DNA from: Escherichia coli | GTDB lineage: Bacteria; Pseudomonadota; Gammaproteobacteria; Enterobacterales; Enterobacteriaceae | Length of the DNA: 64,000 nt | Direction: 5' to 3' (one strand) | NCBI RefSeq assembly: GCF_022846255.1 | Contig: NZ_AP025682.1 | Shown here: in pieces, positions 10,496 to 50,311 of the stretch | Position numbering within the stretch: the first letter of the stretch is position 1 | Layout: each line of letters starts with the position of its first letter | The notes under the pieces: generated by a model | Database searches by the model: none | Told to the model about the DNA's origin: nothing | The model's input: the letters and a program-made list of their open reading frames with translations, nothing else | Program-made: the position numbers and the translations under genes

Positions 10496-11605
10496 ATGAA
10501 CGAACAATCCCAGGCCAAATCACCAGAAGCCTTGCGCGCAATGGTCGCCGGGACACTGGCCAATTTTCAGCACCCAACCCTGAAGCATAACCTCACAACG
10601 CTGAAAGCGTTGCACCATGTCGCCTGGATGGACGACACGCTGCATGTGGAACTGGTTATGCCATTCGTCTGGCATAGCGCGTTCGAAGAGTTAAAAGAGC
10701 AATGTAGCGCCGAACTGCTGCGCATCACCGGAGCGAAAGCTATCGACTGGAAACTGTCGCATAACATAGCCACTCTGAAACGCGTGAAGAATCAGCCGGG
10801 AATTAACGGCGTGAAGAACATTATCGCGGTCAGTTCCGGTAAAGGTGGCGTGGGTAAATCCTCCACGGCGGTAAACCTGGCGTTGGCACTGGCGGCGGAA
10901 GGGGCGAAAGTCGGCATTCTGGACGCCGATATCTACGGCCCATCAATCCCTACCATGCTGGGCGCAGAAAATCAGCGTCCAACTTCGCCGGACGGTACCC
11001 ATATGGCACCGATTATGTCTCATGGCCTGGCAACTAATTCAATTGGTTATCTGGTGACAGACGACAATGCGATGGTGTGGCGTGGCCCAATGGCGAGCAA
11101 GGCGTTAATGCAAATGTTGCAGGAAACCTTGTGGCCGGATCTCGACTATCTGGTGCTTGATATGCCGCCAGGTACCGGTGACATTCAATTGACATTGGCA
11201 CAAAACATTCCAGTAACCGGTGCAGTCGTGGTCACCACCCCGCAGGACATCGCGTTGATCGATGCGAAAAAAGGCATTGTGATGTTCGAGAAAGTCGAAG
11301 TTCCGGTGCTCGGTATTGTCGAGAACATGAGTGTGCATATTTGCAGTAACTGTGGTCACCATGAACCGATTTTCGGTACCGGTGGTGCAGAGAAACTGGC
11401 CGAGAAATACCACACGCAGCTGCTGGGGCAGATGCCGTTACACATCTCCTTACGTGAGGATCTCGATAAAGGCACGCCAACGGTTATCAGCCGTCCTGAG
11501 AGCGAATTTACCGCTATCTACCGCCAGCTGGCTGACCGCGTTGCAGCTCAGCTCTACTGGCAGGGTGAAGTCATTCCAGGCGAGATTTCCTTCCGCGCGG
11601 TCTGA
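10496..11605 (+). CDS. mrp: Fe-S cluster carrier ATPase Mrp/ApbC
   Basis: MNEQSQAKSPEALRAMVAG...; P-loop SGKGGVGKS; CxxC near C-terminus; AAGGAG 7 nt upstream of ATG 10496. Confidence 0.95.
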   Translation: MNEQSQAKSPEALRAMVAGTLANFQHPTLKHNLTTLKALHHVAWMDDTLHVELVMPFVWHSAFEELKEQCSAELLRITGAKAIDWKLSHNIATLKRVKNQPGINGVKNIIAVSSGKGGVGKSSTAVNLALALAAEGAKVGILDADIYGPSIPTMLGAENQRPTSPDGTHMAPIMSHGLATNSIGYLVTDDNAMVWRGPMASKALMQMLQETLWPDLDYLVLDMPPGTGDIQLTLAQNIPVTGAVVVTTPQDIALIDAKKGIVMFEKVEVPVLGIVENMSVHICSNCGHHEPIFGTGGAEKLAEKYHTQLLGQMPLHISLREDLDKGTPTVISRPESEFTAIYRQLADRVAAQLYWQGEVIPGEISFRAV

Positions 11606-11867
11606 CGCGTATTAACCATTCTGGTTATTCTTCATACACCGCAGAGATGTTACATTGATGCGGTGTATTTGTTTTTGCAACATTAATGAACACTTATTTA
11701 ATGCTGCGAATATTCTGCGGACCTTCGTCCGAAACTCTACAAAGTCGATTGATCGTACCGGCGATGCTTCATTATCATCCTTCGTGGCTGTGTAGTGGAT
11801 GTACAGCTATAGTTTGTTATGCACTCATTCTTTCCAGGCATAACCTTTACTACAGGGATAACGTTCA

Positions 11868-12149
11868 ATGAATAAGTACTGGCTGTCAGGAATTATTTTT
11901 CTTGCCTATGGATTGGCTTCTCCCGCGTTCTCTTCAGAAACTGCCACATTAACGATTAATGGTAGGATCAGTCCCCCGACATGCAGTATGGCTATGGTTA
12001 ATGGTCAACCTCAACAGCATTGTGGTCAGTTAACGTATAATGTTGATACCCGTCATCAGGTTTCTTCGCCAGTTAAAGGTGTAACGACGGAAGTGATTGC
12101 TGCAGATAGCGATAGCAAACGTCGAATCGTGTTAAATCGCTACGATTAA
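11868..12149 (+). CDS. yehE: small secreted protein YehE (93 aa, signal peptide)
   Basis: ORF track; N-terminal signal peptide; position upstream of the yeh chaperone-usher genes. Confidence 0.75.
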   Translation: MNKYWLSGIIFLAYGLASPAFSSETATLTINGRISPPTCSMAMVNGQPQQHCGQLTYNVDTRHQVSSPVKGVTTEVIAADSDSKRRIVLNRYD

Positions 12150-12440
12150 TTTGCCACCCTGGTTTAATTGGATTTAGAAAGCTTAAATCATTTACGTGAA
12201 TGATTTAAGCTTTTTTATTGATATTAATAATACCATTTATAGAAATCTACATTAATTAATAGATTTGATAAATATTTAATGTGCTTAAGTATTTGTTGTG
12301 TTTATATTGCAATGGTTAATTTGCTTTAAATCAATAAAACAATGTGTTTACATTGCGGCAACTTTTTGGGTGTGAGAAATTTGTTTCCAAGAGATACAGA
12401 CTCTTAACAACCAAAAATAGATTTTATTAAGGAGCATATT

Positions 12441-12983
12441 ATGAAACGTTCAATTATTGCTGCCGCTGTTTTTTCTTCTTTTTTTATGAGCGCTGGGGTA
12501 TTTGCCGCAGACGTTGATACCGGAACATTAACCATTAAAGGGAATATTGCAGAATCTCCGTGTAAATTCGAAGCAGGTGGCGATTCAGTAAGTATTAATA
12601 TGCCAACTGTACCAACTACGGTCTTTGAAGGTAAAGCTAAATACTCGACCTATGATGGTGCAGTCGGTGTAACCAGCAGCATGTTAAAAATTAGCTGTCC
12701 GAAAGAAGTTGCTGGTGTAAAACTCTCGTTGATTACCAACGATAAAATAACCGGAAACGATAAGGCGATAGCCAGTAGCAACGATACCGTGGGGTATTAT
12801 CTCTATTTAGGTGATAACAGCGATGTCCTGGATGTTTCTGCACCTTTCAACATCGAGAGTTATAAAACAGCGGACGGTCAATATGCTATTCCGTTTAAAG
12901 CAAAATACCTGAAGCTGACAGATAATTCAGTGCAATCAGGTGATGTGTTATCTTCTCTGGTTATGCGTGTGGCGCAGGATTAA
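12441..12983 (+). CDS. yehD: fimbrial major subunit-like protein YehD
   Basis: Signal peptide, conserved Cys pair, typical pilin size (180 aa); first gene of the chaperone-usher cluster. Confidence 0.85.
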   Translation: MKRSIIAAAVFSSFFMSAGVFAADVDTGTLTIKGNIAESPCKFEAGGDSVSINMPTVPTTVFEGKAKYSTYDGAVGVTSSMLKISCPKEVAGVKLSLITNDKITGNDKAIASSNDTVGYYLYLGDNSDVLDVSAPFNIESYKTADGQYAIPFKAKYLKLTDNSVQSGDVLSSLVMRVAQD

Positions 12984-13063
12984 TAAATAAAATTATAAAT
13001 TTTCCCAGGTAATAAACATGGCCGCTATCCCCATGGCGGCCTTTTAATTTAAGAGGCATTAAG

Positions 13064-13738
13064 ATGAAAGGATTATTTGCTTTACTCATTTCTTCTATGG
13101 TCCTTCCTGCACATGCCGGTATTGTTATCTACGGGACGCGTATTATTTACCCGGCAGAAAATAAAGAAGTGATGGTGCAGTTGATGAATCAGGGAAACCG
13201 TTCTTCGCTGCTGCAGGCGTGGATTGATGATGGCGATACGTCGTTACCACCAGAAAAAATTCAGGTTCCTTTCATGTTAACGCCACCAGTGGCAAAAATA
13301 GGGGCAAATTCCGGGCAGCAAGTAAAAATTAAAATTATGCCGAATAAACTACCCACTAATAAAGAGAGTATTTTTTATCTGAATGTTCTGGATATTCCAC
13401 CAAATAGTCCAGAACAAGAAGGTAAGAATGCACTGAAGTTTGCGATGCAAAACAGAATTAAGTTGTTTTACCGGCCAGCGGGTATTGCTCCGGTAAATAA
13501 AGTGACCTTTAAAAAGTTACTGGTAAATCGCAGTGGCAATGGATTGGTGATAAAAAATGACTCAGCTAATTGGGTGACGATTTCGGATGTCAAAGCTAAT
13601 AATGTTAAAGTCAATTATGAAACTATTATGATTGCCCCCTTAGAAAGTCAGAGTGTTAATGTCAAAAGTAATAATGCAAATAACTGGCATCTGACCATTA
13701 TCGATGACCATGGCAATTATATTAGTGACAAAATTTAA
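13064..13738 (+). CDS. yehC: periplasmic fimbrial chaperone YehC (PapD-like)
   Basis: 224 aa with signal peptide; GTRIIYP / NRIKLFYRP chaperone signature motifs. Confidence 0.9.
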   Translation: MKGLFALLISSMVLPAHAGIVIYGTRIIYPAENKEVMVQLMNQGNRSSLLQAWIDDGDTSLPPEKIQVPFMLTPPVAKIGANSGQQVKIKIMPNKLPTNKESIFYLNVLDIPPNSPEQEGKNALKFAMQNRIKLFYRPAGIAPVNKVTFKKLLVNRSGNGLVIKNDSANWVTISDVKANNVKVNYETIMIAPLESQSVNVKSNNANNWHLTIIDDHGNYISDKI

Positions 13739-13753
13739 TTGCAGGAGCTGCCT

Positions 13754-16234
13754 ATGTTGAGAATGACCCCACTTGCATCAGCAATCGTAGCGTTATTGAT
13801 CGGCATTGAAGCTTATGCAGCTGAAGAAACCTTTGATACCCATTTCATGATAGGTGGAATGAAAGACCAGCAGGTTTCAAATATTCGTCTTGAAGATAAT
13901 CAGCCCTTGCCGGGGCAGTATGACATCGATATTTATGTCAATAAGCAATGGCGTGGGAAATATGAGATCTTTGTTAAAGACAACCCGCAAGAAACATGTT
14001 TATCAAGGGAAATGATCAAGCGGTTAGGCATTAATACCGATAGCTTTGCCAGCGGTAAGCAATGTTTAACATTTAAGCAACTTATTCAGGGCGGGAGCTA
14101 TACCTGGGATATCGGAGTTTTTCGTCTCGATTTCAGTGTCCCGCAGGCCTGGGTGGAAGAGCTGGAAAGTGGCTATGTTCCACCGGAAAACTGGGAGCGG
14201 GGTATTAATGCGTTTTATACCTCTTATTATGTGAGTCAGTATTACAGCGATTATAAAGCGTCCGGTAATAGCAAGAGTACATATGTACGTTTTAACAGCG
14301 GGTTAAATTTATTGGGGTGGCAACTGCATTCTGATGCCAGTTTCAGTAAAACAAATAACAATCCAGGGGGGTGGAAAAGCAATACCCTGTATCTGGAACG
14401 TGGATTTGCCCAACTTCTCGGCACGCTTCGTGTGGGTGATATGTACACATCAAGCGATATTTTTGATTCTGTTCGCTTCAGCGGTGTGCGGTTGTTTCGT
14501 GATATGCAGATGTTGCCTAACTCGAAACAAAATTTTACGCCACGGGTGCAGGGGATTGCTCAGAGTAACGCGCTGGTAACTATTGAACAGAATGGTTTTG
14601 TGGTTTATCAGAAAGAGGTTCCTCCTGGCCCGTTTGCGATTACAGATTTGCAGTTGGCCGGAGGTGGAGCAGATCTTGATATCAGCGTGAAAGAGGCGGA
14701 CGGTTCGGTAACCACCTATCTGGTGCCTTATGCAGCGGTACCAAATATGCTGCAACCCGGCGTGTCGAAATATGATTTTGCGGCGGGTCGTAGCCATATT
14801 GAAGGGGCGAGCAAACAAAGTGATTTTGTCCAGGCGGGTCATCAGTATGGTTTTAATAACTTATTAACGCTGTATGGTGGCTCGATGGTCGCGAATAATT
14901 ATTACGCGTTCACTTTGGGGACTGGCTGGAATACACGCATTGGTGCCATTTCCGTCGATGCCACGAAGTCGCATAGTAAACAAGACAACGGCGATGTGTT
15001 TGACGGGCAAAGTTATCAAATTGCCTACAACAAATTTGTGAGCCAAACGTCGACACGTTTTGGTCTGGCGGCCTGGCGTTATTCGTCGCGTGATTATCGG
15101 ACATTTAATGATCACGTATGGGCAAACAATAAAGATAATTATCGCCGTGATGAAAACGATATCTATGACATTGCCGATTATTACCAGAACGATTTTGGCC
15201 GTAAAAATAGCTTCTCTGCCAATATGAGTCAGTCATTGCCAGAAGGCTGGGGTTCTGTGTCCTTAAGTACGTTATGGCGAGATTACTGGGGGCGTAGCGG
15301 CAGCAGTAAGGATTATCAGTTGAGTTATTCCAACAACCTGCGAAGGATAAGCTATACCCTCGCGGCAAGCCATGCTTATGACGAGAATCATCATGAAGAG
15401 AAACGTTTTAATATTTTTATATCGATTCCCTTTGATTGGGGTGATGACGTTACGACGCCTCGTCGGCAAATATATATGTCTAACTCAACGACGTTTGATG
15501 ATCAGGGGGTTGCCTCAAATAATACGGGATTATCAGGAACCGTTGGAAGCCGGGATCAGTTTAACTATGGGGTCAACCTGAGTTATCAGTATCAGGGAAA
15601 TGAAACGACAGCTGGGGCGAATTTAACCTGGAACGCGCCGGTTGCGACAGTGAATGGCAGTTATAGTCAGTCGAGTGCTTATCGACAGGCTGGAGCCAGT
15701 GTTTCAGGGGGCATTGTCGCCTGGTCGGGTGGCGTTAATCTGGCAAACCGTCTTTCTGAAACGTTTGCTGTGATGAATGCGCCAGGAATTAAAGATGCTT
15801 ATGTCAATGGGCAAAAATATCGCACAACAAACCGTAATGGAGTGGTGGTATACGACGGAATGACACCTTATCGGGAAAATTACCTGATGTTGGATGTGTC
15901 ACAAAGCGATAGCGAAGCAGAATTACGTGGCAACCGGAAAATTGCCGCCCCTTATCGCGGCGCGGTTGTACTGGTTAATTTTGATACCGATCAGCGCAAG
16001 CCATGGTTTATAAAAGCATTAAGAGCGGATGGGCAACCATTAACGTTTGGTTATGAAGTCAATGATATCCATGGTCATAATATTGGTGTTGTCGGCCAGG
16101 GAAGCCAGTTATTTATTCGCACCAATGAAGTACCGCCATCGGTTAATGTGGCAATTGATAAGCAACAAGGGCTTTCATGCACAATCACCTTCGGTAAAGA
16201 GATTGATGAAAGTAAAAATTATATTTGCCAGTAA
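13754..16234 (+). CDS. yehB: fimbrial outer-membrane usher YehB
   Basis: About 826 aa, signal peptide MLRMTPLASAIVALLIGIEAYA, usher-size beta-barrel protein between chaperone and adhesin genes. Confidence 0.9.
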   Translation: MLRMTPLASAIVALLIGIEAYAAEETFDTHFMIGGMKDQQVSNIRLEDNQPLPGQYDIDIYVNKQWRGKYEIFVKDNPQETCLSREMIKRLGINTDSFASGKQCLTFKQLIQGGSYTWDIGVFRLDFSVPQAWVEELESGYVPPENWERGINAFYTSYYVSQYYSDYKASGNSKSTYVRFNSGLNLLGWQLHSDASFSKTNNNPGGWKSNTLYLERGFAQLLGTLRVGDMYTSSDIFDSVRFSGVRLFRDMQMLPNSKQNFTPRVQGIAQSNALVTIEQNGFVVYQKEVPPGPFAITDLQLAGGGADLDISVKEADGSVTTYLVPYAAVPNMLQPGVSKYDFAAGRSHIEGASKQSDFVQAGHQYGFNNLLTLYGGSMVANNYYAFTLGTGWNTRIGAISVDATKSHSKQDNGDVFDGQSYQIAYNKFVSQTSTRFGLAAWRYSSRDYRTFNDHVWANNKDNYRRDENDIYDIADYYQNDFGRKNSFSANMSQSLPEGWGSVSLSTLWRDYWGRSGSSKDYQLSYSNNLRRISYTLAASHAYDENHHEEKRFNIFISIPFDWGDDVTTPRRQIYMSNSTTFDDQGVASNNTGLSGTVGSRDQFNYGVNLSYQYQGNETTAGANLTWNAPVATVNGSYSQSSAYRQAGASVSGGIVAWSGGVNLANRLSETFAVMNAPGIKDAYVNGQKYRTTNRNGVVVYDGMTPYRENYLMLDVSQSDSEAELRGNRKIAAPYRGAVVLVNFDTDQRKPWFIKALRADGQPLTFGYEVNDIHGHNIGVVGQGSQLFIRTNEVPPSVNVAIDKQQGLSCTITFGKEIDESKNYICQ

Positions 16235-16249
16235 TAGTCAGGTGGTTCT

Positions 16250-17284
16250 ATGGAAATTCGCATAATGCTATTTATAGTAATGATGATGGTTATGCCTGTG
16301 AGCTATGCGGCATGTTATAGTGAGTTATCTGTTCAGCACAATTTGGTTGTTCAGGGGGATTTTGCACTTACTCAAACACAAATGGCGACCTATGAGCATA
16401 ATTTTAATGATTCGTCATGCGTGAGTACAAATACTATCACACCTATGAGCCCGTCGGATATTATTGTTGGACTTTATAACGATACCATTAAATTAAATTT
16501 ACATTTTGAATGGACCAATAAAAACAACATTACGTTGTCAAATAATCAGACCAGTTTCACCAGTGGTTATTCGGTGACGGTGACACCTGCGGCCAGTAAT
16601 GCAAAAGTGAATGTTTCTGCGGGGGGCGGGGGTTCAGTGATGATTAATGGAGTTGCGACATTATCCAGTGCTTCATCATCGACACGCGGGAGTGCCGCAG
16701 TACAATTTCTACTGTGTTTATTAGGTGGTAAGTCATGGGATGCATGTGTAAATAGCTACAGAAATGCATTGGCACAAAATGCAGGTGTCTATTCCTTTAA
16801 TCTGACATTGTCATACAACCCGATAACCACAACCTGCAAACCGGACGATTTATTAATTACGTTAGAGAGTATTCCCGTTTCACAATTACCAGCCACAGGT
16901 AACAAAACAACAATAAATAGTAAAAAAGGGGATATTATTCTGCGTTGTAAAAATTTATTAGGTCAACAAAATCAAACATCACGGAAAATGCAGGTGTATT
17001 TATCAAGTTCTGATTTGTTAGCCGGCAGTAACACGATCCTGAAAGGTGCAGAAGATAATGGAGTCGGATTTATGCTTGAAAGCAATAGTTCGCCAGTCAC
17101 ATTTTTAAATATCACTGATAACAGCAAAGGGTACACAAATTTAAAAGAAATTGCGGCGAAGTCAAAAATTACAGATACAACGGTCTCAATTCCAGTAACT
17201 GCCAGTTACTATGTTTATGATAAAAATAAAGTAAAATCTGGTGCAATACAGGCAACCGCATTAATCAACGTGAAATACGACTAA
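16250..17284 (+). CDS. yehA: fimbrial adhesin-like protein YehA
   Basis: 344 aa, signal peptide, last gene of the yeh cluster. Confidence 0.8.
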   Translation: MEIRIMLFIVMMMVMPVSYAACYSELSVQHNLVVQGDFALTQTQMATYEHNFNDSSCVSTNTITPMSPSDIIVGLYNDTIKLNLHFEWTNKNNITLSNNQTSFTSGYSVTVTPAASNAKVNVSAGGGGSVMINGVATLSSASSSTRGSAAVQFLLCLLGGKSWDACVNSYRNALAQNAGVYSFNLTLSYNPITTTCKPDDLLITLESIPVSQLPATGNKTTINSKKGDIILRCKNLLGQQNQTSRKMQVYLSSSDLLAGSNTILKGAEDNGVGFMLESNSSPVTFLNITDNSKGYTNLKEIAAKSKITDTTVSIPVTASYYVYDKNKVKSGAIQATALINVKYD

Positions 17285-17340
17285 TAACAAGCAAGACGAG
17301 CAAGTGGCTAATAATAAAAAATAACAAGGTGTCTGCATTT

Positions 17341-17367
17341 CCCCCTCATGATGAGGGGGCTTTTTTT
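17341..17367 (+). terminator. intrinsic terminator after yehA (CCCCCTCATGATGAGGGGG + T7)
   Basis: Perfect GC hairpin followed by TTTTTTT; the rcnB stop codon (17366-17368, minus) lies within the T-tract. Confidence 0.6.
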
Positions 17368-17704
17368 AGCGATGATAAAAAATCTCACCGTCGTAGGCTT
17401 TAATGATTTTACCGTCGGTGTCGCTGATCAACACGTACGCGCCACCCATATAGGTCCAGTGCGTCCCGGCATCAGGCGCGGGCAGGTTACGTAACTGCCA
17501 CTGCTTAATGTTGTACTCATCGGTACGGTACATTTCTGGTACGGTGTCACCTGGTTTGAAATGCTTAAAGTCAGCAATGAAACTGCTTAACTCATACTTA
17601 GAAATTCCCGAGGTATTGGTCGAACCCGCGGTGGCTGGTGCGGCCCAGGCGGCACTGGTAACCAGCAAAAGCGCACCCAGCAACATCTTATTTTTAATGG
17701 TCAT
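17366..17704 (-). CDS. rcnB: periplasmic Ni/Co homeostasis protein RcnB
   Basis: 112-aa product starting MTIKNKMLLGALLLVTSAAWA (signal peptide); the longer 172-aa ORF in the track is an upstream extension. Confidence 0.9.
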   Translation of the reverse strand: MTIKNKMLLGALLLVTSAAWAAPATAGSTNTSGISKYELSSFIADFKHFKPGDTVPEMYRTDEYNIKQWQLRNLPAPDAGTHWTYMGGAYVLISDTDGKIIKAYDGEIFYHR

Positions 17705-19229: not shown

Positions 19230-19360
19230 AACCAAACGACTCGGGGTGCCCTTCTGCGTGAAGGCTGAGAAATACCCGTATCACCTGATCTGGATAATGC
19301 CAGCGTAGGGAAGTCACGGACCACCAGGTCATTGCTTCTTCACGTTATGGCAGGAGCAAA
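19230..19360 (+). promoter_or_regulatory. TPP (thiamine pyrophosphate) riboswitch in the thiM leader
   Basis: CGACTCGGGGTGCCCTTCTGCGTGAAGGCTGAGAAATACCCGTATCACCTGATCTGGATAATGCCAGCGTAGGGAAGTCACGG matches the thiM aptamer (thi-box CUGAGA ... ACCUGAUCUGGAUAAUGCCAGCGUAGGGAA); the AGGAG SD just before the ATG is sequestered by the expression platform. Confidence 0.9.
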
Positions 19361-35498: not shown

Positions 35499-35585
35499 AA
35501 AAAATAAGCCCGTGTAAGGGAGATTACACAGGCTAAGGAGGTGGTTCCTGGTACAGCTAGCATTTTATGGGTTATGTTTTTCAGC
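35499..35585 (-). ncRNA. cyaR: CyaR (RyeE) Hfq-dependent sRNA
   Basis: Minus strand reads GCTGAAAAACATAACCCATAAAATGCTAGCTGTACCAGGAACCACCTCCTTAGCCTGTGTAATCTCCCTTACACGGGCTTATTTTTT, matching CyaR including the terminator hairpin and U-tract. Confidence 0.85.
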
Positions 35586-35669
35586 GAAACGGATGATAAC
35601 CTTAATAAATGCAGCTGTATGTGATCGGTTTCTAAGAATTTTCCATCCGGGAAAAATAATCGAAATTAA

Positions 35670-49663: not shown

Positions 49664-49805
49664 CGGAAAAGCCCCTCCCGAGGAAGGGGCCTTAAATAAG
49701 GAAAGGGTCATGATGAAGTGGATCATCATCGTGGTGCTCTTAGTGATTAGCTACCCAGCATACTAAGACTACCAGGGCGGGGGAAACCCCGCTCTACCCT
49801 CACTC
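49664..49805 (-). ncRNA. Sib-family antisense sRNA (antitoxin RNA); boundaries approximate
   Basis: Antisense to the ibs ORF; minus-strand terminator hairpin CCCCTTCC-TC-GGGAGGGG followed by CTTTTCC at about 49664-49690. The 5' end is estimated from the usual Sib length of about 140 nt. Confidence 0.45.
49710..49766 (+). CDS. Ibs-family type I toxin, 18 aa (MMKWIIIVVLLVISYPAY)
   Basis: Short hydrophobic ORF with SD AAGGAAAGGG; Ibs family signature MMK...LLVIS..AY. A or B assignment not attempted. Confidence 0.7.
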   Translation: MMKWIIIVVLLVISYPAY

Positions 49806-49991
49806 CTGAAAGTATGCCTTCACGGTCCAATTGTCAATCCGCAGACTTTGCAGTCTGCGATCCTGCCAGCAAATATTCTTTGCGAGTCGTTACGCAATAA
49901 TCACACTTGAAACTATTTTATCCGCAAGTCAGCGATAGACTGCATACAGGGCGAAAGGAGGTAAGCCGAAGATTTCAGCGGGACGCTGAAA

Positions 49992-50133
49992 CGGGAAAGC
50001 CCCTCCCGAGGAAGGGGCCTTAAATAAGGAAAGGGTCATGATGAAGCTACTCATCATCGTGGTGCTCTTAGTCATTAGCTGGCCAGCTTACTAAGACTAC
50101 CAGGGCGGGGGAAACCCCGCTCTACCCTCACTC
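49992..50133 (-). ncRNA. Sib-family antisense sRNA, second copy; boundaries approximate
   Basis: Same hairpin and terminator, offset by about 328 bp from copy 1. Confidence 0.45.
50038..50094 (+). CDS. Ibs-family type I toxin, 18 aa (MMKLLIIVVLLVISWPAY)
   Basis: Second copy within repeat unit 2; same SD and context. Confidence 0.7.
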   Translation: MMKLLIIVVLLVISWPAY

Positions 50134-50311
50134 CTGAAATTATGTCACTCCGCCCTTAGTGTCAATCGACGGCTCTCCGTTCTTGCGAGGCGAATAGCAA
50201 AATTTTCTGCGCCGCCGGGCCTAATTCTGAAAGTTTCTTCGTTTGCTCTTATTTCATTATTGCAATCGGTATGATACCGGACCTCAATAATTCTCTAAGA
50301 AAGGATTTCTT

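Follow-up and report, generated by a model that had tools for sequence, protein, structure and literature searches.

The classical symmetric bidirectional terminator has an A-run upstream and a U-run downstream of its stem, and both of its strands give a hairpin with a U-tract. For pairs of convergent genes, terminators that overlap or act in both directions were reportedly described by Ju, Li and Liu in 2019. It may be noted that intrinsic release usually takes place 7-9 nt after the terminator stem. Another kind of transcript end was described by Dar and Sorek in 2018 (PMC6061677), who found that the steady-state 3′ ends of many E. coli mRNAs, of the Rho-dependent class, are precise and come right after stable stem-loops that are not followed by uridines; in their model transcription ends diffusely at points further downstream, and PNPase or RNase II shortens the RNA back to the stem, which protects what lies before it. 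For convergent genes, bidirectional or overlapping terminators that use a single hairpin in an overlap zone have also been described (Wang et al., bioRxiv 2022). A particular case is found in the tables of the TRS study (Nat Commun 2023;14:7843, PMC10687069, Supplementary Data 2-4), where a single hairpin gives GAUCCCCCCGCUCGGGGGGAUUUUUUU in the satP sense and AAAAAAAUCCCCCCGAGCGGGGGGAUCUCAAA in the mog sense. Primary 3′ termini are given there for both genes, and the U-less mog side also ends at the stem.

Here we analysed the junction of the convergent genes yehA and rcnB in a window of E. coli DNA, by which we mean the whole stretch of 64,000 nt that was studied. Both of the well-described classes apply to this junction, as a single hairpin common to the convergent pair has the form of an intrinsic terminator on one strand and of a U-less 3′-end stem-loop on the other. 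As in the case of the convergent terminators, the hairpin lies in an overlap zone of ~30 nt. With its U7 side and its U-less side it is an exact analogue of satP/mog as the latter is entered in the TRS tables, except that satP and mog are both expressed with both ends observed, whereas for yehA/rcnB only the end on the U-less side is given. We consider it likely that this one hairpin serves two convergent units, as a terminator in the yehA sense and as a 3′-terminal stem-loop in the rcnB sense, with trimming as the preferred route to the rcnB end. In kind it is an ordinary terminator hairpin, shared by the genes of a convergent pair, and existing data cover it.

Genes and hairpin at the junction

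The names yehA and rcnB, which the first-pass annotation had given from the sequence, are borne out by the RefSeq annotation and by Pfam (RcnB, Fimbrial), and RefSeq annotates both genes at this place in thousands of E. coli genomes. The mechanical list of open reading frames has a 172-aa ORF that corresponds to rcnB plus an upstream extension. No further gene is present on the + strand between yehA and rcnB. The hairpin is 6 nt away from the rcnB stop codon and 56 nt away from the yehA stop codon (Table 1), and in the rcnB sense its stem starts at the tenth base counted from the U of UAA.

Table 1. Coordinates of the junction features and of other elements observed in the window.
Feature	Position in window	Strand	Basis	Remark
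rcnB CDS, 112 aa + stop, 339 nt	17366..17704	-	RefSeq, Pfam RcnB	last gene of the rcnA-rcnB unit
rcnB stop codon TAA (+ strand TTA)	17366..17368	-		the final two T's of T7 belong to it
yehA CDS, 344 aa, fimbrial adhesin-like	16250..17284	+	RefSeq, Pfam Fimbrial	last gene of yehDCBA
yehA 3′ untranslated stretch, 56 nt	17285..17340	+		AT-rich, up to the hairpin
Palindrome CCCCCTCATGATGAGGGGG	17341..17359	.	scan, folding, stem-core conservation	stem-loop on both strands
C spacer + T7 + A	17360..17368	+		C at 17360, T7 at 17361-17367, A at 17368; U-tract of the predicted yehA-sense intrinsic terminator
rcnB mRNA 3′ terminus equivalent, RNA ends ...GAGGGGGAAA(U)-3′	17337..17338	-	PMC10687069, coordinate transfer	
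U6 run in rcnB-sense RNA	17316..17321	-	folding, coordinates	19-24 nt past the hairpin, in a U-rich stretch
yehB (usher), intact 831-aa ORF	13739-16234	+		
Strict-scan site	8298-8321	-	strict scan	
Strict-scan site	725-746	+	strict scan	
TPP riboswitch	19232-19328	+	RF00059, 71 bits	upstream of thiM
CyaR/RyeE small RNA gene	35502-35587	-	RF00112, 100.7 bits	
Tandem Sib antitoxin RNA genes (two)	49695-49837, 50023-50165	-	RF00113, 137-141 bits	
Identical GCCCCTCCCGAGGAAGGGG hairpins	49671-49689, 49999-50017	+		adjoin the two Sib genes

As read from the sequence, the palindrome is perfect over its 19 nt (9+1+9), and on the + strand the C, the T7 and the A follow directly 3′ of it. A loop of 1 nt is sterically impossible. 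Since pairing over 9 bp would need such a loop, the physical stem has 8 bp and not 9, and both RNA folding and a consensus terminator scan gave 8 bp with a loop of 3 nt, where 6 of the 8 pairs are G-C. The tail given by the consensus terminator scan is CTTTTTTTAG. The same stem forms on either strand (local fold z = -2.2 and -2.4), with a fold energy of -14.4 to -14.7 kcal/mol in the yehA sense and -15.2 kcal/mol in the rcnB sense. The two senses are separated by what comes after the stem, which is CUUUUUUUA for yehA (7 U in 9 nt, after a one-base C spacer) and AAAUGCAGA for rcnB (1 U in 9 nt). With this rcnB-sense tail and with GCATTT as the upstream flank on the + strand, the hairpin is not a symmetric bidirectional terminator of the classical form. 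Folding of the rcnB-sense RNA also showed that a weak A-U second stem and the U6 run come after the hairpin.

These results change some details of the first-pass annotation, which had described a perfect 9-bp GC stem plus T7 with the rcnB stop codon inside the T-tract. The T7 is as described, but the stem is of 8 bp with a 3-nt loop and is not all GC, and the T7 does not sit directly on the stem because the one C intervenes. Two of the three bases of the stop codon do lie in the T-tract and the third base does not. Also, the terminator had been said to overlap the last codon of rcnB; the last sense codon (Arg, 17369-17371) lies outside, and it is the stop codon that shares two bases. The further remark that the minus-strand U-tract is poor agrees with the single U in 9 nt after the stem.

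A strict scan for perfect stems (7 bp or longer, with 5 or more GC pairs) that have a loop of 3-8 nt and 6 or more T in 8 gave 3 sites on both strands of the 64-kb window as against 0.27 +/- 0.51 in 30 dinucleotide shuffles. Of the other two sites, the one on the minus strand (8321-8298) fits a metG primary 3′ terminus listed in published data (K-12 2196372/3, ~window 8291). On using a loose terminator scan for the local 5 kb, 3 sites were found where 4.9 are expected from shuffles, which is no excess. Rfam was searched with a permissive scan of 15-20 kb and a gathering-threshold scan of the whole window, and no family was found at the hairpin. The sole match there was sub-threshold, to Hrs1 (23.6 bits vs a cut-off of 56.4, E = 0.24); it is of the type usual for terminator-like hairpins and was regarded as chance. 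No second copy of CCCCCTC-N5-GAGGGGG is present in the window. The idea of a repeated element was dropped, as the 2-mismatch matches at 49671 and 49999 belong to Sib/Ibs loci; the hairpins at these places are presumably part of the Ibs/Sib toxin-antitoxin repeats (Table 1). A full-text literature search found no paper for the hairpin sequence itself.

Conservation in Escherichia and neighbours of rcnB in other genera

With a 301-nt query the junction was detected in 5356 of the 5426 complete E. coli genomes, and with an 86-nt query in 5338 of them; 2686 of these 5338 matches are at least 99% identical. To the window we aligned six full-junction E. coli representatives taken from different identity bands. 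In all six the stem core CCCCCTC/GAGGGGG and the T7 are unchanged and it is the loop that varies: the window and the K-12-like strains have ATGAT, O157 and FJ_Ec_21 have TCTCC, and CB7453 has TCTTC. In some other E. coli lineages the stem is of 7 bp with a 5-nt loop. All E. coli variants fold with -13.9 to -18.5 kcal/mol and have 7 U after the stem in the yehA sense and 1 U in the rcnB sense. In E. albertii the stem and the T7 are kept with a different loop, and the U7 abuts the stem. Covariation across genera carries no meaning here because the stems are not homologous, and within Escherichia the stem core is invariant.

Some individual genomes may be mentioned separately. In strain CB7453 a C is inserted after the T7 (equivalent of window 17367/17368), by which the rcnB stop codon changes from TAA to TGA while the protein end and the T7 are unaltered. 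In strain 3CM a T-to-G change at the equivalent of window 17340 adds a closing G-C pair, and the resulting 9-bp stem (-18.5 kcal/mol) abuts the U7; this variant is a stronger version of the yehA/rcnB terminator. In strain 1506 an IS1 with an adjacent deletion (788-1503 of its locus) has taken away the whole yeh cluster, from apbC as far as the T-run. With TTTTTAGCG directly next to the IS1 end, rcnB is intact and its 3′ hairpin is lost, which makes the strain a natural mutant for the role of the hairpin. In DETEC-S792, the most similar complete genome (99.7% over the junction), yehB is annotated as a frameshifted pseudogene (1-535 of its locus).

For comparison with other genera, 28 loci were fetched through the RcnB protein. 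On dividing them by the gene that follows rcnB, a convergent fimbrial gene is found in Escherichia, Salmonella and most Citrobacter; convergent apbC is found in Citrobacter R56, Pseudocitrobacter, Klebsiella indica, Kluyvera, Leclercia and one Enterobacter MAG; and a co-directional GNAT acetyltransferase gene is found in most Enterobacter, Pluralibacter and relatives. At 2-22 nt past the rcnB stop, 15 of 16 convergent loci carry a strong hairpin (z <= -2.4) and most co-directional loci carry none, and an A7-8 run is seen beside the rcnB stop in 5 of 9 convergent-fimbrial loci vs 0 of 7 apbC loci, these counts being small and not phylogenetically independent. They fit a picture in which rcnB retains a 3′ hairpin wherever it is the last gene of a unit, and the T-run is retained where an opposing fimbrial operon needs stopping. 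As a minor evolutionary point, the rcnB-side hairpin recurs in different genera with unrelated stems, and the T-run recurs only where a fimbrial gene converges.

In the co-directional class the GNAT ORF starts right after the rcnB stop or overlaps it (2834-3259 on the + strand of locus L015, with equivalents in L017 and L022-L033). This ORF is of 141 aa in L015 and L017 and is Pfam-confirmed for L015. Most loci of the class (Pluralibacter, Enterobacter and relatives) are without a significant hairpin; L015 and L017 fold strongly (z ~-2.5).

Among the convergent loci, Salmonella diarizonae has the identical TAAAAAAAG after rcnB and then an unrelated 11-bp stem (CACGTACTTTC/GAAAGTACGTG), and this stem is also present, with other loops, in Citrobacter FP75 and MGH106. 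S. diarizonae and Citrobacter FP75 have the same layout as E. coli, in that an A7-8 run contains or adjoins the rcnB stop codon. In Citrobacter Cu233 the element is symmetric (AAAA-stem-TTTTTT). Cu233, like Leclercia and Kluyvera, has a U-run on the side of rcnB. The yeh operon corresponds to the Stc cluster, which occupies the same locus in Salmonella and Citrobacter (PMC3559732). The cluster (window ~11600-17400) is absent between rcnB and apbC in Leclercia, Kluyvera, Pseudocitrobacter, Klebsiella indica and Citrobacter R56. These absences and its low GC content (0.34-0.47, with 0.50-0.55 in the flanks) are consistent with an old insertion of yeh between rcnB and apbC.

On this basis the hairpin may be ancestrally a 3′-end element of rcnB, to which the T-run was added once the yeh/stc cluster came to lie opposite, so that the role for yehA would be secondary. 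We put this forward tentatively, as a possibility that falls somewhat short of an even chance. Hairpins after rcnB are found also in those genera that have apbC and not a fimbrial gene as neighbour, the GC contrast of the yeh cluster with its flanks points the same way, and so does the position of the hairpin close to rcnB and away from yehA. Citrobacter R56, which has neither yehA nor the A-run, even carries the E. coli-type CCCCCTC/GAGGGGG stem with a flank that aligns in part, but R56 may simply have lost the yeh cluster. Also, the TAAAAAAAG next to rcnB is common to Salmonella and E. coli while the stems differ, which suits a stem that evolved with the fimbrial side, and the sample behind the comparison is small with loci that are phylogenetically linked.

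Transcript ends in the two directions

In the yehA sense, the features by which intrinsic terminators are recognised are all found: the stem is GC rich and within the range of ~5-14 bp, the loop is within 3-8 nt, the U-tract of 7-8 nt expected directly after the stem is represented by 7 U after the one-base spacer, and the element is downstream of the last gene of its unit on the same strand. By its sequence it would thus be a canonical Rho-independent terminator of yehDCBA, as the first-pass annotation had proposed, with termination in the yehA direction being predicted. The 8-bp stem, the short loop, the U7 and the energy in the normal range are like those of canonical E. coli terminators. 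Unlike these, it has its U-run set off from the stem by one C, a slight departure from the ideal, and the run extends into the stop codon of the gene opposite. Since release is usual 7-9 nt past the stem, the yehA 3′ ends are predicted at ~17366-17368, on the rcnB stop codon. After transcribing the stem-loop, the C and the U7, the polymerase would release the transcript inside or at this stop codon, and therefore yeh transcription would not run antisense into rcnB. In those datasets of the TRS tables that the analysis covered, the rows run thiM, rcnB, mrp, and no yehA terminus is entered between the thiM and mrp rows (PMC10687069). The chaperone-usher operon yehDCBA is repressed by H-NS and stays cryptic, with poor expression in laboratory culture (PMC5797941), and this silencing under laboratory conditions would explain why no yehA 3′ end is reported. 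In those tables the experimentally documented 3′ end is that of rcnB, on the strand with the poor U-tract, and the role of the hairpin for yehA is a prediction.

For rcnB, the same tables give a ‘Primary’ 3′ terminus in E. coli K-12 MG1655, with the dominant position at 2187326 or 2187327 on the + strand, a peak at 2187323-2187334 and adjusted p = 2e-37, 8e-55 and 3e-56 in three LB libraries. The fold reported at this terminus is ...UAAAAAAAGCCCCCUCAUCAUGAGGGGGAAAUG with -16.1 kcal/mol. As rcnB ends at 2187298 in K-12 MG1655, coordinate transfer places the terminus 3-4 nt beyond the stem; the transfer uses strain 3FA (K-12 coordinates), which is identical to the window over the aligned 141-nt junction (17260-17400). 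That the hairpin might end rcnB transcription as well had been suggested in the first-pass annotation together with a check, namely whether transcript 3′ ends map elsewhere. For rcnB the published Primary terminus maps at the hairpin, which supports the suggestion. It may be noted that a steady-state 3′ end alone is not proof that RNA polymerase terminates there in the rcnB direction. A premature 5′UTR terminus of thiM is also given in the TRS tables. Regarding other sources, the supplementary files examined from Adams et al. 2021 (PMC7815308) have no entries for rcnB or yehA, the SMRT-Cappable-seq and terminator-prediction supplements have nothing on the junction, and a full-text literature search for rcnB with terminator gave nothing relevant. 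A paper on RpoN/NtrC SELEX merely lists a site between rcnA and rcnB.

The rcnB end is precise and immediately past a stable stem-loop without uridines, as in the class described in PMC6061677. By analogy with this class, read-through followed by trimming is the most likely route to it. In the rcnB direction the palindrome would form the 3′-terminal stem-loop of the rcnA-rcnB messenger, and most polymerases would pass this hairpin, which has no U-tract. They would then stop diffusely in the AT/U-rich region antisense to yehA, via Rho or at weak U-rich sites, and 3′-to-5′ exonucleases would trim the tail back to the hairpin, which would protect the messenger. A minority of polymerases may terminate directly at the hairpin. 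Trimming is favoured because the end lies 3-4 nt from the stem, because a U-rich stretch with the U6 run is found 19-24 nt further on, and because AT-rich antisense yehA lies downstream. Possibly the U6 run acts as a downstream site of pausing or termination before the 3′ trimming. A point that may count against trimming, though it says little about a rut site, is the C/G ratio downstream in the rcnB sense: in the first 240 nt the ratio lies at 0.9-1.2 and shows no clear C-over-G (rut-like) bias, while at 240-400 nt it reaches 1.4-1.75. In the lack of a clear bias just downstream rcnB differs from the PMC6061677 class. It also differs in having an A-run before the stem, which that class is typically without and which here is the U-tract of the other strand. 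An Hfq sRNA derived from the rcnB 3′UTR was considered and dropped, since that strand has no U-tail and Rfam gives no support.

The rcnB end could also be produced directly, if the hairpin were a true bidirectional intrinsic terminator that with its weak AAAU tail releases the rcnB RNA at 17337-17338 without Rho and without trimming. The mapped end immediately past the stem would agree with this, the hairpin is as stable in the rcnB sense as in the yehA sense, and the weak second A-U stem and the U6 run follow it. But there is only 1 U in 9 nt after the stem, and the end at 3-4 nt is closer to the stem than the typical 7-9 nt. Also, a ribosome terminating 6 nt from the stem would probably cover the stem base, and steady-state ends past U-less stems are generally explained by trimming (PMC6061677). 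We find direct release rather unlikely but still a serious alternative, and prefer read-through and trimming.

A head-on collision, in which the rcnB and yehA polymerases pause at the hairpin, meet and get released, is suggested by the geometry, as convergent genes that have one stem-loop where their transcripts overlap, and no U-tract on one side of it, are the class studied by SEnd-seq and single-molecule methods in bioRxiv 10.1101/2022.10.23.513370. That model needs traffic from two sides and works best for highly expressed pairs. Yet yehDCBA is silent in LB (PMC5797941) and it was in LB cultures that the rcnB end was mapped according to the TRS tables (PMC10687069), which also sets this locus apart from the convergent-terminator class. 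rcnB itself is weakly expressed in LB. With the yeh side silent, collision is very unlikely to account for the LB data.

Even less should be expected of a regulatory reading, in which induction of rcnAB by Ni/Co would send polymerases through the hairpin and antisense into the H-NS-silenced yehA, while ribosomes terminating at the stop codon would melt the stem base and so tune the read-through. It is drawn from the missing U-tract on the rcnB side and from the stop codon being 6 nt from the stem, has no support beyond this geometry, and as a whole is highly improbable; if true, metal stress would modulate the Yeh fimbrial operon by transcriptional interference or by antisense RNA.

Lastly, a chance palindrome without any role in transcription, for which only the lack of excess in the loose scan speaks, can practically be set aside, given the excess in the strict scan, the position exactly between convergent stop codons, the conservation across E. 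coli with variation only in the loop, the different stems at the same position in other genera, and the in vivo 3′ end listed in the TRS tables, which in effect already refutes it.

If both ends hold, the stretch common to the two transcripts would be only ~30 nt (17337-17367), and neither RNA would reach antisense into the coding sequence of the other gene. The 3′ boundaries of the two units are thereby fixed, with rcnAB ending at ~17337 and yehDCBA predicted to end at ~17366-17368, which is of little importance beyond annotation. The junction is a small, clean case of the rule known from the literature that a palindrome can work on one strand as a terminator with its U-tract and on the other as a 3′-end stem-loop that has none.
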